Shown in pieces: positions 4,779 to 45,950 of a DNA stretch of 64,000 bases; the first letter of the stretch is position 1; the number at the start of each line of letters is the position of its first letter. The translations under genes were made by a program, and so were the position numbers. The stretch is from Squalus acanthias (Eukaryota): positions 5,456,001 through 5,520,000 of the forward strand of contig CM059432.1 in the NCBI GenBank assembly GCA_030390025.1, read 5' to 3'. The notes beneath the pieces were generated by a model that was given only the letters and a program-made list of their open reading frames with translations, did no database searches and was not told where the DNA came from.

Positions 4779-4825
4779 TATAATGTGTGGTTTCTAAAGT
4801 GTACAACTCCCATTTTCTGTTTCAG

Positions 4826-4899
4826 ACATATGCATTGCTACTGCGATTTCCCTCCTTATGATAACGATCTGCGGAATGGCCACTTATGGCGCATATAAG
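4826..4899 (+). CDS. LAPTM4B: LAPTM4B internal coding exon (74 nt; xICIATAISLLMITICGMATYGAYK)
   Basis: Acceptor ttttctgtttcAG and donor AAG|gtacgg. The translation matches the LAPTM4B segment MCIAIAISLLMILICAMATYGAYK as I recall it. Upstream exons were not found in the window. Confidence 0.93.
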
Positions 4900-8763: not shown

Positions 8764-8945
8764 CTAATGTTCCACGAGAATTGAGTCTGGGGTATGAAAA
8801 AAGCTGAGCCTTGAAAGAACTTTTTTCCTCTCCTTTTACTAAATATTAGAAAAGTGTAAAACTCTTCCCCTTCATGGTCAGTGCACAGCTTTCATGGCGC
8901 ATAGGGGTATAAATTGGTTCGGGTTCCCTGCTTTCTTCAGCTACG

Positions 8946-9181
8946 TTGCGGAGATGCCGGTGTTGGACTGGGGTGGACAAAAATGAGAAGTCGCACAACA
9001 CCAGGTTATAGTCCAACAGTTTTATTTGAAATTACGAGCTTTCGGAGCGCTGCTCCTTCGTCAGGTGAAGTGAAGGAATACGTATTCCTTCACTTCACCT
9101 GACGAAGGAGCAGCGCTCCGAAAGCTCGTAATTTCAAATAAAACTGTTGGACTATAACCTGGTGTTGTGCGACTTCTCATT
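8946..9181. mobile_element. Palindromic mini Penelope-like element (family A), non-coding
   Basis: Perfect inverted repeat 8979-9184 centred on aata-CG-tatt. 33-nt one-sided tail at 8946-8978. 14-bp TSD tttcttcagctacg at 8932-8945 and 9182-9195. Homologous to the ends of 41406-43909. Confidence 0.9.
9094..9132 (+). ncRNA. Minimal type I hammerhead ribozyme motif (mirror copy at 9031-9069 on -)
   Basis: tcac-CTGACGA-aGGAGC-agc-GCTCC-GAAA-gcTC-gtaa: CUGANGA/GAAA core, helix II, very short helix III. Confidence 0.75.
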
Positions 9182-9453
9182 TTTCTTCAGCTACGACTGT
9201 GACTCAGTTTAAGTTACAAGCCTCTGCGCCACAAAGAAATTGAAGATGTCGATTACGTACGTGATGACCAGGGGTACGATTTGGGTGGTGTTTACAGTGT
9301 GGTACCAGGTCACTCGTTCTGCAGTGCACCTTTAATCGTGCTGTAGATTCTGGTACCAGTTTCAATAAAAATGCATCAGAGCGGAGCTCGTCAAACTGTG
9401 CCAGACTCAGTGTTTGCTAAACTTACGTTTTTTGTTTCCTCGTTGTTTTCCAG

Positions 9454-9576
9454 CAACACAGTGCTTGGATCGTCCCATTCTTCTGTTACCAGATCTTTGA
9501 CTTCGCCCTGAACACGCTTGTAGCGATCAGTGTGGTCGTCTATCCCAACTCCATTCAAGACTACTTGCGACAACTG
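9454..9576 (+). CDS. LAPTM4B: LAPTM4B coding exon (123 nt; QHSAWIVPFFCYQIFDFALNTLVAISVVVYPNSIQDYLRQL)
   Basis: Polypyrimidine tract ttgttttccAG, donor CTG|gtacgc, phase 0-0. Contains the LAPTM4 signature IPFFCYQ-FDF transmembrane segment. Confidence 0.96.
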
Positions 9577-9761: not shown

Positions 9762-10376
9762 ACATGTCTCAGTATGCCTCAGAGACATGGACCATGTACA
9801 GCAGGCACCTCAAAGCACTGGAGAGGTACCACCAACGCTGCCTCCGCAAGATCCTGCAAATCCATTGGCAGGATAGGCGCACCAACATCAGCGTTCTCGC
9901 TCAGGCCAACATCCCCAGCACCGAAGCTTTGACCACGCTCGATCAGCTCCGATGGACAGGTCACATTGTCCGCATGCCCGATTCGAGACTCCCAAAACAA
10001 GCGCTCTACTCGGAGCTCCGACACGGCAAGAGAGCCCCAGGTGGGCAGAGGAAACGCTTCAAGGACACCCTCAAAGCCTCCTTGAAAAAGTGCAACATCC
10101 CCACCGACACCTGGGAATCCCTGGCCCAAGACCGCACAAAGTGGAGGAGAAGCATCCGGGAAGGCGCCGAACACCTCGAGTCTCTTCACCGGGAGCAAGC
10201 GGAAGCCAAGCGCAGGCAGCGCAAGGAGCGCACGTCAACCCAAGCACCCCACCCACCCGCCCCTTCAACCACCGTCTGCCCTGCATTGGACTCATCAGTC
10301 ACCTGAGAACTCATTTTTAGTGTGGAAGCAAGTCATCCTCGGTTCTGAGGGACTGCCTAAGAAGAAAAAGAAGAAG
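9762..10376 (+). mobile_element. RTE-clade LINE 3' fragment
   Basis: YASETWT..LERYHQRCLRKIL..QLRWTGHIVRMPDSRLPKQALY..GGQRKRFKD..SHLRTH, ending in an (AAG)n tail. Confidence 0.9.
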
Positions 10377-35061: not shown

Positions 35062-36320
35062 CAAAGCATTTTAAAACCCTCTTTTATATCAACAGATTTT
35101 TTTTTTGGTTAACTAATTAAAGAGCAGGGCAGTTTTACCCAGTATCCTGTCCAGCATTGAGGCAGCTGTGGCTCAGTGGGTAGCACCCTCGTCTCTGAGT
35201 CAGAAGGTTGTGGGTTCAAATCCCACTCCATAAGATTTGAGTATAAAAATCTAGGCTGACACTCCCAGTGCAGTGCTGAGGGAGCGCTGCACTGTCAGAG
35301 GTGCCGTCTTTTGGATGAGACGTTAAATCGAGATCTCTGCCTGCTCTCTCAGATGGACATAAAAGAGTCTGCCTCCACCACCCTGTCAGGCAGTGCATTC
35401 CAGATCCTAACCACTCGCTGCTTAAAAATGGTTTTTTTCACGTCGCCTTTGGTTCTTTTGCCAATCACCTTAAATCTGTGTCCCTGGTTCTCAACCCTTC
35501 CGCCAATGGGAACAGTTTCTCTCTATCTACTGTGTCCAGACCCCTCATGATTTTGAACACCGGGGAACAGCTCCACCAATGTATTTTGTAGGTACGTCAA
35601 AAGCAGCTCCAAAGGGCAGTTAAGAGTCAACCACGTTGCTGTGGGTCTGGAGTCACATATCGGCCAGACCGGGTAAGGGCGGCAGATTTCCTTCCCTAAG
35701 TGAACCAGATAGGATTATTACAAGCAATCCAGTAGTTACACTGAGTCACCATTACTGATACTCGCTTTTGGTTTTTAAATGCCAGATTTGTTGAATTAAC
35801 TGAATTTAAATTCCCCAGCTGCTAGGGGGCGGGTGTGGGGATTTGAACTCATGTCCCATCAGAACATTAGTCCTTGGATTACTAGTCCAGTAACATAATC
35901 GCTATGCAACCATTCAGACTGGCGTTGGCTGCTGGTTACTTGGATTGCCTGAAAGGGTGGTGGAGGCAGACTCTTTTATGTCCACCTGAGAGAGCAAGCA
36001 GAGATCTCGATTTAACGTCTCATCCAAAAGACAGTGCCTCTGACAGTGCAGCACTCCCTCAGCAGGGAGTGTCAGCCTAGATTTTTATGCTCAAATCTTA
36101 GGGAGCGGGATTTGAACCCACAACCTTCTGACTCAGAGGCAAGGGTGCTACCCACGGAGCCACAGCTGATGCAATGCTGGACAGGATACTGGGTAAAACT
36201 GCCCTGCTCTTTAATTAGTTAACCAAAAAAAAAATCTGTTGATATAAAAGAGGGTTTTAAAATGCTTTGGAGCTGCTTTTTTGACGTACCTACAAAATAC
36301 ATCGGTGGAGCTGTCCCCTG
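35062..36320. repeat. Local inverted duplication (35062-35392 / 35946-36269 and 35561-35614 / 36265-36320)
   Basis: Reverse-complement identity extends through unique flank, a SINE and a SINE/CR1 junction. Confidence 0.9.
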
Positions 36321-40963: not shown

Positions 40964-41828
40964 CTCAGTTTTGAAATTTTCAATTGACCGCCCCCCTCCC
41001 CCCCTCTGCCCCCCCCCCCCCCCCAGCCTCAACACCTTTTTGTGGGAGAGAGTTCCAGATTTCCACCACCCATTGTGCTTCCTGACATCACTCCTGAACG
41101 GCCTGGCTCTAATATTTAACGTCATGCTGGAGAAATGCAAGTTGTTGTTGTCTTTGTTGTTGTTGACGAGGATTCATTCATATTGTGGCATTTGCCTCCC
41201 TGATCACCGGCAACAGGCTTGTCACCGCCGGTAGCCTGGCTGTTTTATTGGGAGGGGCCACAGTTTGAATCAATTGGCACAAAACGGAGAGATGCGGGCT
41301 GGTGCCTAAAGCTGCCCCACTCTGCTGAACTTTTAGTCTCAGCCGCACTGCTTAAAGAAACTGCTAAACCTAATTGAAGCTCCAGCCCTGGGAAGGCAGG
41401 TAAAATTGAGAGGTCGCACAACACCAGGTTATAGTCCAACAGTTTTATTTGAAATCACAAGCTTTCGGAGCTATCGATTGCTCCTTCCTCAGGTGAAGTA
41501 AATTAGATACAGAATCGCCAAAGCATATATAGATAGAAAACAAAGCATGTGTACTTTACAATTGCAGACCAATAAATTAAATCATCCTGACTATCTGCCG
41601 AGGTGTGATAAAGTTAATTAAGTCAGCCAGGAAGGTACCACATCAAAGACATAGCAAGATACAACTGAGACAATGAGGTGTAGTCGCAGGGGTTCTAACG
41701 TGTCAAAAGCTGCCGTCTGTATGTAAAACGAAAAGCTTTAAAAAAATTTTACTTTTTTACTGGGAAAATTTTTACTTTTTTACTGGGAATCACATCTGTG
41801 AACAACCTAACGACGACTCGAGTCCGGA

Positions 41829-43415
41829 TCACGTCATGTATCGTGACATAAACCCAAGATCCCGATTGAGACCGTCTTCATGAGTGCGGAACTTGGCTAT
41901 CAGTTTCTGCTCGATGATTTTGCGTTGTCGTGTGTTTCTAAGGTTGCCTTGGAGAACGCTTACCCGCAGATCCGAGGCTGAATGTCCTTGACTGCTGAAG
42001 TGTTCCCCGACTGGGAGGTAACAATCCTGCCTGGCGATTGTTGCGCGGTGCTCGTTCATATGTTGTCTCAGTGTCTGCATGGTCTCGCCGATGTACCATG
42101 CCGCGGTGCATTCTTTCCTGCAACGTATGAGGTAGACAACGTTGGCCGAGTCACATGAGTATGTACCATGTACCTGGTGGGTAGTGTCCTCACGTGTGAT
42201 GGTGGTATCTGTGTTGATGATCTGGCATGTCTTGCAGAGTTTGCCGTGGCAGGGTTGTGTGGTGTCGTGGTCGCTGTTATCCTGAAAGCTGGGTAATTTG
42301 CTGCGAACGATGGTACTTCTGAGGTTAGGCGGCTGTTTGAAGGCAAGTAGTGGAGGCGTGGGGATGGCCTTAGCAAGGTGTTTGTCGTCATCGATGACAT
42401 GTTGAAGGCTGCGAAGAACATGGCGTAGTTTCTCCGCTCCGGGGAAGTACTGGACGACGTAGTTGTTGGTTGTGTCCCGTGTTTGCCTTCTGAGGAGGTC
42501 TATGCGATTTTTCGCTGTGGCCCGTCGGAACTGTCGATCGATGAGTCGAGCGTCATATCCCGTTCTTACGAGGGCGTTTTTCAGCGTCCGTAGGTGTCCA
42601 TCGCGTTCCTCCTCGTCTGAGCAGATCCTGTGTATTCGCAGGGCTTGTCCATAGGGGATGGCTTCTTTAACATGGTTAGGGTGGAAGCTGGAGAAGTGGA
42701 GCATCGTGAGGTTGTCCGTGGGCTTGCGGTAGAGTGAAGTGCTGAGGTGTCCGTCTTTGATGGAGATTCGTGTGTCCAGGAATGAGACCGATTCTGAGGA
42801 GTAGTCCATGGTGAGTTTGATGGTGGGATGGAACTTGTTTATGTTATCGTGTAGTCTTTTCAGTGATCCTTCGCCATGGGTCCAAAGGAAGAAAATGTCG
42901 TCGATGTATCTGGTGTACAGCGTTGGCTGGAGGTCCTGTGCAGCGAAGAAGTCTTGCTCGAACTTGTGCATGAAGATGTTGGCGTATTGGGGTGCGAATT
43001 TGGTCCCCATGGCTGTTCCGTGTGTTTGGGTAAAAAAATGGTTGTCGAAGGTGAAGACATTGTGGTCAAGGATGAAGCGGATGAGTTGTAGGATGGCGTC
43101 TGGAGATTGGCTGTTGTTGATGTTGAGTACTGAGGCTGTTGCAGCGATGCCGTCATCGTGGGGGATACTGGTGTAGAGTGCCGATACGTCCATCGTGGCA
43201 AGGAGTGTTCCTGGTTCAACTGGTCCGTGGGTGCTGAGTTTCTGTAAGAAGTCTGTAGTGTCGCGACAGAAGCTGGGGGTTCCCTGTACGATGGGTTTCA
43301 GAATGCCCTCGACGTATCCAGAGAGGTTCTCACACAGGGTTCCATTGCCTGATACGATAGGACGTCCGGGTGTGTTGGCTTTGTGTATCTTTGGGAGGCA
43401 GTAGAAGTCTCCCAC
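41829..43415 (-). CDS. PLE polyprotein fragment: reverse transcriptase + Cys linker + GIY-YIG endonuclease (Neptune-like)
   Basis: FYCLPKIHK..PGRPIVS, ATMDVSALYTSIP, GTAMGTKFAPQYANIFM, RYIDDIF, FLD, CHGKLCKTC and NVVYLIRC..WYIGET..EH. 528 codons without a stop; the N-terminus is lost at the inversion. Confidence 0.93.
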   Translation of the reverse strand: MGDFYCLPKIHKANTPGRPIVSGNGTLCENLSGYVEGILKPIVQGTPSFCRDTTDFLQKLSTHGPVEPGTLLATMDVSALYTSIPHDDGIAATASVLNINNSQSPDAILQLIRFILDHNVFTFDNHFFTQTHGTAMGTKFAPQYANIFMHKFEQDFFAAQDLQPTLYTRYIDDIFFLWTHGEGSLKRLHDNINKFHPTIKLTMDYSSESVSFLDTRISIKDGHLSTSLYRKPTDNLTMLHFSSFHPNHVKEAIPYGQALRIHRICSDEEERDGHLRTLKNALVRTGYDARLIDRQFRRATAKNRIDLLRRQTRDTTNNYVVQYFPGAEKLRHVLRSLQHVIDDDKHLAKAIPTPPLLAFKQPPNLRSTIVRSKLPSFQDNSDHDTTQPCHGKLCKTCQIINTDTTITREDTTHQVHGTYSCDSANVVYLIRCRKECTAAWYIGETMQTLRQHMNEHRATIARQDCYLPVGEHFSSQGHSASDLRVSVLQGNLRNTRQRKIIEQKLIAKFRTHEDGLNRDLGFMSRYMT

Positions 43416-43781
43416 GCGGGGAGTACGTGGGATGAGAGCGCGTAGGATGTTTTGAAGGTCTGGATCGAAGGTCTTGATCAGCTATTGAGTTGGCGGGTGT
43501 GTAAAAAAGTAAAAACAGTAAAAAAGTAAATTTTTTTTAAAGCTTTTCGTTTTACATACAGACGGCAGCTTTTGACACGTTAGAACCCCTGCGACTACAC
43601 CTCATTGTCTCAGTTGTATCTTGCTATGTCTTTGATGTGGTACCTTCCTGGCTGACTTAATTAACTTTATCACACCTCGGCAGATAGTCAGGATGATTTA
43701 ATTTATTGGTCTGCAATTGTAAAGTACACATGCTTTGTTTTCTATCTATATATGCTTTGGCGATTCTGTATCTAATTTACT

Positions 43782-43823
43782 TCACCTGAGGAAGGAGCAA
43801 TCGATAGCTCCGAAAGCTTGTGA
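43782..43823 (+). ncRNA. Minimal hammerhead ribozyme motif (mirror at 41455-41496 on -, sense to the ORF)
   Basis: TCAC-CTGAGGA-aGGAGC-aatcgata-GCTCC-GAAA-gctt-GTGA, with palindromic AAGCTT at helix III. Confidence 0.75.
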
Positions 43824-43980
43824 TTTCAAATAAAACTGTTGGACTATAACCTGGTGTTGTGCGACCTCTCAATTTTGTCCACCCAGTCCAACACCGGCAT
43901 CTCCGCATCAAGGCAGGTAAAACCAGAGTACAATTATTACTGAACCGCTGTAATGCACAATGACGTTCATGAATTGGTTC

Positions 43981-45286: not shown

Positions 45287-45950
45287 TCTTCTTCTTAGGC
45301 AGTCCCTCGGAACCGAGGATGACTTGCTTCCACACTAAAAATGAGTTCTCAGGTGACTGATGAGTCCAATGCGGGACCTACAGTCTCTGTCACAGGTGGG
45401 GCAGACGGTGGTTGACGGGGCGGGTGGGTGGGGTGCTTGAGTTGATGTGCGCTCCTTCCGCTGTTTGCGCTTGGCTTCCGCTTGCTCCCGGCGAAGAAAC
45501 TCGAGGTGCTCGGCGCCTTCCCGGATGCTTCTCCTCCACTTTGTGCGGTCTTGGGCCAGGGATTCCCAGGTGTCGGTGGGGATGTTGCACTTTTTCCAAG
45601 GAGGCTTTGAGGGTGTCCTTGAAGCGTTTCCTCTGCCCACCTGGGGCTCTCTTGCCGTGCCGGAGCTCCGAGTAGAGCGCTTGTTTTGGGAGTCTCGTAT
45701 CGGGCATGGGGACGATGTGATCCGTCCATCGGAGCTGATCGAGCGTGGTCAAAGCTTCGATGCTGAGGATGTTGGCCTGAGCGAGAACACTGACGTTGGT
45801 GCGCCTATCCTGCCAATGGATTTGCAGGATCTTGCGGAGGCAGCGTTGGTGGTACCTCTCCAGGTGCTTTGAGGTGCCTGCTGTATATGGTCCATGTCTC
45901 TGAGGCATACAGCAGGGCGGGTATCACTGCTGCTCTGTAGACCATGAGCA
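45287..45950 (-). mobile_element. RTE-clade LINE 3' fragment
   Basis: Homologous to 9762-10376; retains the C-terminal CPTCDRDCRSRIGLISHLRTH zinc finger. Confidence 0.9.

Follow-up and report, generated by a model that had tools for sequence, protein, structure and literature searches.

We analysed a 64-kb window of Squalus acanthias DNA, part of a genome of 3.7 Gb, in which a long palindrome lies within an intron of a LAPTM4-family gene, between two plus-strand exons, as had been predicted (Table 1). Further LAPTM4-type exons occur near 22.1 and 37.4 kb of the window, and the gene may be LAPTM4B rather than LAPTM4A. One of its exons matches the Pfam family Mtp at an E-value of 7e-4, weaker than the curated cut-off, and a genome-wide Pfam search for Mtp did not recover the gene's short exons. 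Other repeat pairs of the window, inverted or near-identical (95-96%), lie at 35062-36269 and at 9818-10281 with 45399-45863.

Table 1. Positions in the window of the palindrome, its putative hammerhead parts, the flanking exons and the larger Penelope-like element (PLE); TSD, target-site duplication; RT, reverse transcription or transcriptase; EN, endonuclease
Feature	Position	Strand	Remarks
Upstream exon, LAPTM4-type host gene	~4825-4899	+	Approximate limits
Left TSD, 14 nt	8932-8945	n/a	Direct-repeat match
PLE tail, 33 nt	8946-8978	-	Between two RT start sites; meaning after the available part of PMC11167929
Left arm, tail-bearing cDNA	8979-9081	-	Ends at -17 relative to hammerhead C3
Mirrored minimal type I hammerhead motif	9032-9068	-	C.A mismatch in helix I; predicted buried in hairpin
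Palindrome centre, CG dinucleotide	9081-9082	n/a	2-nt microhomology or blunt join at G-17
Right arm, tail-less cDNA	9082-9184	+	Last 3 T common to TSD
Minimal type I hammerhead motif	9095-9131	+	Predicted cut after 9127
Helix I, 5' strand	9095-9098	+
Hammerhead core	9099-9105	+
Extra A	9106	+
Helix II (5 bp)	9107-9119	+	Then GAA
Palindromic AGCU	9123-9126	+
Helix I, 3' strand	9128-9131	+
AATAAA	9137-9142		Right arm of palindrome
Right TSD, 14 nt	9182-9195	n/a	First 3 T common to arm end
Downstream exon, LAPTM4-type host gene	9454-9576	+
Large PLE insertion, other subfamily	41393-43922	-	13-nt TSD, 361-bp inverted arms, tail
RT-EN frame of large PLE, 550 aa	41829-43481	-	5'-truncated

The palindrome spans 8979-9184 and consists of two 103-bp arms with neither mismatch nor spacer, while the second-longest palindrome of the 64-kb window has arms of just 9 bp. 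These coordinates reproduce the original prediction exactly, and the other parts that it had named, a one-sided 33-nt tail, a 14-bp TSD and a hammerhead core with AATAAA in each arm, are present as well. The arms probably meet at a self-complementary CG, a dinucleotide that occurs at this point in some parent copies of the PLE family, or else are joined blunt. Folding predicts a 9-bp stem between the tail and the bases just 3' of AATAAA (8946-9030, minus strand), and the resulting stem-loop would have both RT start sites in or beside it. Palindromes are prone to mis-assembly, and an artefact could in principle produce such a structure. We regard this as scarcely credible here, since the palindrome has a clean 14-nt TSD, unique flanks and a tail on a single side, and thousands of loci share the layout yet differ in their junctions.

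The arms are 87-89% identical to the ends of the large PLE of the window (41402-43909), which repeats the same layout at a larger scale, and the palindrome is indeed a terminal segment of this family, as first proposed. The family is organized as TATA box, hammerhead, two-site terminal region, tail and ORF ATG, and its insertions have, in order, a TSD, the tail with an inverted arm, the second arm and the TSD again, the median TSD being 12 nt. The only full-length copy found, L199 (3078-6352 of that locus; contig C1, ~2.363-2.366 Mb), encodes an 848-aa ORF whose ATG lies immediately 3' of the tail and whose final residues look frameshifted. Its TATA-less 5' pLTR, with a 5' end at -15 to -17 relative to C3, is joined to an inverted, ORF-bearing partner arm. 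Both this ORF and the 550-aa window frame match Pfam RVT_1 above the cut-off; Pfam gave no GIY-YIG match in either, and the endonuclease was recognized by eye from the motif VVYLIRC..C...YIGE. The RT-EN ORF, the inverted arm with tail and the TSD are together the features of an EN+ PLE insertion. Both frames also carry a CX4CxxC linker, CHGKLCKTC, and a CX2-5CxxC linker upstream of GIY-YIG defines Neptune/Nematis in the available text of PMC8557442; judged by this linker sequence, the family is of Neptune/Nematis type, not Poseidon. In 26 of 27 long copies scored, the first base of a TATATA is 37-41 nt upstream of C3; the exception has no core. The palindrome element (8932-9195) is without this TATA box.

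The palindrome belongs to a very large population. The exact 36-nt tail occurs 22,082 times in the genome, and head-to-head pairs with both hammerhead halves at most 70 nt apart, hereafter minis, number at least 11,872 loci. Because the ATG directly follows the tail in L199, the minis correspond to the 5' UTR of the element. Structures were compared in a sample of 90 of the 100 tail matches listed, which are consecutive and come from the start of contig C1. Minis of up to 300 nt were the commonest product (42 of 90 tail-anchored loci), with differing junctions, and 40 of the 42 had a TSD-like repeat of 10-14 nt (median 12). The 40 junctions classified comprised 14 with microhomology, 7 blunt joins and 19 with inserts. 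Perfect spacer-free joins are uncommon but recurring, with arms above 100 bp in one of the 90 loci: L059, whose 119-bp arms form the sole perfect spacer-free palindrome above 24 bp. Symmetric joins on self-complementary words of the parent (the TATA region, AAGCTT, the helix II stem) were seen in L059, L099, L081 and L112. Six loci (L009, L020, L056, L098, L104 and L172) have short, repeated, templated inserts at their junctions, and such inserts are typical of end-joining by polymerase theta. Four others (L060, L094, L105 and L126) look like single-arm insertions, in which the tail-bearing arm is followed by flank or a TSD-like repeat, and L046 has two tandem tail-bearing arms ahead of an inverted one, as if three cDNAs had been inserted in a single event.

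One half of the original prediction held the palindrome to be a non-autonomous hairpin whose two strands each bear a working ribozyme, mobilized in trans and propagating by way of its own RNA. Retrozymes, non-autonomous hammerhead repeats that descend from PLE ends, do exist according to the part of bioRxiv 2026.07.22.740005 available, and the exact 18-nt centre of the palindrome is common to three loci of the genome. A shared centre had been set beforehand as the test for a self-propagating family, and the outcome speaks against one, with only 3 of 11,872 minis sharing it and the sampled junctions nearly all differing. The two other same-centre copies carry five identical changes relative to the window copy, mirrored in both arms, and one of them a further, likewise mirrored change. 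These changes are markers of source lineages, present in long copies too, so each same-centre palindrome was built anew; each also has its own TSD. With no TATA box, no tandem units and both ribozymes buried in the hairpin, we consider this half of the prediction very improbable. A MITE- or SINE-like family was also considered and rejected, as there is no large set of same-junction copies descended from each other.

The hammerheads themselves conform to the minimal type I in their core, extra base, G10.1-C11.1 pair and palindromic helix III. The 4-5-bp helix I of this type is not formed in the window copy, where UCAC faces GUAA and leaves a C.A mismatch, and an Rfam scan of the window returned no family matching the motif at E<=1. 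Among 224 other typed arms (some overlapping loci kept), helix I was TCAC/GTGA in 146, TTAC/GTAA in 19, GTAC/GTAA in 16 and CTAC/GTAA in 6; the mismatched TCAC/GTAA of the window copy appeared in a single arm, a further point against a self-propagating element. In 60 left arms, 43 had TCAC/GTGA and 11 (G/T/C)TAC/GTAA. Since helix I covaries in the family, the hammerhead fold is under selection in the source elements. The window allele has a predicted fold energy of -4.4 kcal/mol, as against -10.8 kcal/mol with an intact helix I, and the whole hairpin folds at -200.1 kcal/mol compared with -123.6 kcal/mol when the hammerhead is forced, a cost of ~76 kcal/mol. On either strand the antisense arm is transcribed first, and prefix folding shows the ribozyme zipped up as it emerges. 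An ambisense ribozyme function is therefore unlikely, the motif being buried in the hairpin and its helix I mismatched. The hammerheads would be passengers, and a transcript of the insertion is predicted to form a 103-bp duplex. The difference in the helix II loop between the palindrome and the large copy (agc against aatcgata), previously read, with the identical arms, as a sign of one template or of homogenisation, reflects a difference between subfamilies instead.

Ends at the ribozyme cleavage site were counted across the genome. Arms break right at the predicted cut in 449 cases, as against 86 and 260 at two neighbouring control positions, with patterns that 37.5%, 37.5% and 56% of random continuations, respectively, would pass. 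Among the matches listed, 61 of 100 cut-site breaks continue with letters that fit annealing via helix I, and many of the cut-site joins in 30 loci inspected were confirmed to be of this type, which confounds the count as a footprint of cleavage. The scarcity of cut-site ends is in line with uncleaved RNA as the template, as described in the part of PMC11167929 available.

Arm ends were mapped with C3 of the hammerhead as position 0, using 89 left and 64 right arms and leaving out ends beyond about -100, which are alignment limits. They are strongly clustered: of 116 at-risk arms, 54 have their ends at 0 to -12, and the per-base hazard there is 9.2-fold that of the interval from -13 to -100, which holds 22 ends (p ~1e-20). 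This pile-up lies ~30 nt below the TATA box, and with canonical TATA spacing transcription would be expected to begin at around -7 to -10, on a TCAC that resembles an initiator. The arm ends therefore likely mark the 5' end of the PLE RNA, whose start is here predicted from TATA spacing alone. A pair of TATA and TCACT is described for rotifer pLTRs in the text at hand of PMC3846280. The Penelope of D. virilis has a TATA-less internal promoter according to the portion seen of PMC2377424, so a TATA-start rule would not be general. The arms of the window palindrome extend 5 nt beyond the main pile-up, to -17; just 3 of the 62 arms at risk in this zone end there, and so the window copy is not itself a typical run-off product. 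As to a possible second start at -17, 48 breaks fall there genome-wide compared with 26 at -14, with 3,443 arms passing, but the count is confounded, as 33 of the 48 fit microhomology; the control at -20 gave 82, mostly a length variant.

How many templates an insertion uses can be read from differences between its arms. Helix II could be typed in both arms of 30 of 55 minis, and its alleles, mostly recurrent ones, differed in 13 of the 30, the background rate being 8 mismatches per 1170 nt (p 1e-6 for the helix II excess, counting 12). In a junction-trimmed comparison, 13 of 60 two-arm insertions were discordant, counting only sites with each allele represented in at least 4 other loci, and 3 of these 13 differ at 2-4 sites. 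Discordance is concentrated in the helix II loop, and beyond the loop it affects 4 sites in L127 and 3 in L118. Arm lengths are coupled (38 short-short, 18 long-long and 8 mixed pairs, n=64; p 5e-9). Two other common markers gave 0 and 1 discordant cases, so that pairing is not random: partners could be drawn from a restricted pool (same time or source locus), or a hot spot or gene conversion at the loop could explain part of the discordance. In the window copy the arms are identical, as in 32 of the 60 insertions, and its two templates were the same in sequence or there was one single template.

The other half of the original prediction was an extreme 5'-truncated fold-back insertion, and here the outcome is divided: a truncated PLE insertion it is, while fold-back fails as a general route, given arms with different family alleles. 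A fold-back, in which a single cDNA or antisense template turns back on itself and is copied into an inverted arm with a palindromic junction, is proposed for the junction palindromes of rotifer Penelope elements in the available text of PMC3846280, and it accounts for identical arms, for coupled lengths and for the symmetry of the window copy. It is expected to leave a loop, and the window copy has none; the tail-less arm halts at a recurring second site; L002, with nearly the same centre as the window copy, has discordant arms; and allele differences at several sites (L111, L118 and L127, also L110, L123 and L179) are beyond its reach. We judge fold-back rather unlikely, and slightly less probable still a reading in which one RNA serves both primers (twin priming), the loop is an RT-error hot spot or a site of gene conversion, and arm ends arise from RT stalling at the ribozyme. 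Coupled arm lengths do suit one template, the same helix II alleles are seen together with several marker backgrounds, and the other markers are rarely discordant. The multi-site discordance of L127 and L118 extends beyond the loop, and neither fold-back nor twin priming on a single RNA can yield differences of this kind. As for stalling, no predicted structure is left at the pile-up, which is situated upstream of the ribozyme and coincides with the region of the L199 5' end.

The hairpin is best explained as a TSD-flanked, head-to-head pair of PLE end pieces, which were probably produced by double priming, often on two RNAs, with both cDNAs running off near the RNA 5' end and then being joined. 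By analogy with an anole relative, for which a dimer is predicted, the PLE protein would nick both target strands 12-14 nt apart, and the two 3' ends would prime cDNA synthesis, one from the tail-bearing start site and the other from the tail-less site. The template would be uncleaved RNA, and the two primed cDNAs may often use separate molecules. With the complex at the 5'-UTR copy of the start sites, both cDNAs would run off the RNA 5' end after ~90-130 nt, a short pair that would resemble doubled strong-stop DNA, and their 3' ends would be end-joined with 0-6 nt of microhomology or with small inserts. In the window copy, both cDNAs would have reached -17/-18 and met at the CG, or blunt, to give a flawless palindrome. 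Without a TATA box, the mini product would be a dead end, and the hairpin was likely made in a single integration event and is likely unable to move again. The mini population as a whole suggests simultaneous copying of two RNA molecules by the element, likely as far as the RNA start, into both strands of the cut site. A wider and more tentative proposal, for which we would claim somewhat less than an even chance, is that PLEs are two-RNA machines, a dimer with perhaps AGCU-paired transcripts, one per strand, and that the ~12,000 minis, as doubled strong-stop products, show where the RNA 5' end lies. Pairing of the two RNAs through the AGCU palindrome, in the manner of a retroviral dimer signal, is speculation.

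Taken alone, the locus is an unremarkable dead insertion whose structural type has been described, and it is of value as a single entry in a very large natural data set. What is new is the pile-up of arm ends below the TATA box and, in 13 of 60 insertions, the presence of arms with different alleles. A literature search limited to titles and abstract openings, with restricted coverage, returned no report of two-template PLE integration, of mini-palindromes as a main product or of a 5'-end pile-up. Both observations bear on the PLE mechanism and are addressable with an existing in vitro system, and if the two-RNA reading is true, it explains the inverted-repeat-plus-tail structure of the whole PLE class. 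Thousands of ~100-bp intronic hairpins might also be a large source of double-stranded RNA for editing or for small-RNA silencing of the element.

An inverted copy with a tail is the layout described for PLEs in the available portions of PMC8557442, PMC3846280 and PMC2377424. In the first two, EN+ PLE insertions have an inverted 5'-truncated copy, a 30-40-bp tail, a TSD and palindromic junctions, and the window hairpin shares the TSD and palindromic junction as well as the head-to-head ends and one-sided tail. The minis differ from these published insertions in that both copies are cut to ~100-135 nt, with no ORF, and in being the commonest product of the sample. According to the section seen of PMC8557442, the way in which PLEs form their inverted repeats and tails is undefined, and the parts at hand of that paper and of PMC3846280 propose self-priming or endonuclease resolution, not two RNAs. 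The Poseidon element of Anolis carolinensis (PAc), in the available text of PMC11167929, cuts and extends both strands in vitro, starts RT at two sites flanking the tail and gives shorter products from 5'-truncated RNA; its upstream hammerhead is dispensable, ribozyme cleavage is not needed and a dimer is predicted. That text neither derives the inverted structure nor tests the number of RNAs. Unlike PAc, whose ATG lies within the ribozyme, the shark PLE has its ATG after the tail, and it carries the CX4CxxC linker of the Neptune/Nematis type.

The hammerhead motifs agree with the minimal PLE hammerheads of PMC4209133, as far as its available text describes them, in the core, the extra base at 9/10.1, the short helix I, the palindromic helix III and compensatory changes. 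The same source reports hammerhead pairs 100-700 bp apart on opposite strands, and monomers that are inactive, with low activity in dimers. The window copy departs from these in its helix I mismatch and in having motifs that are exact complements 30 nt apart, so that the two are expected to anneal to one another rather than fold. Non-LTR retrozymes (bioRxiv 2026.07.22.740005, in the part available) are likewise non-coding, hammerhead-bearing and derived from PLE ends, but consist of head-to-tail tandem units on one strand, whereas the window element is a single head-to-head pair. Identity with a non-LTR retrozyme was rejected, there being no tandem head-to-tail units at the palindrome locus.

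Two better-known systems offer the closest parallels to the proposed mechanism. Retroviral strong-stop DNA is a short run-off cDNA from the RNA 5' end, and in LINE-1 twin priming each target strand serves as a primer and the cDNAs are joined through microhomology. In LINE-1 the second primer anneals internally on the same RNA, and the arms do not overlap. PLE arms, in contrast, start at the same element end and can derive from different RNAs.
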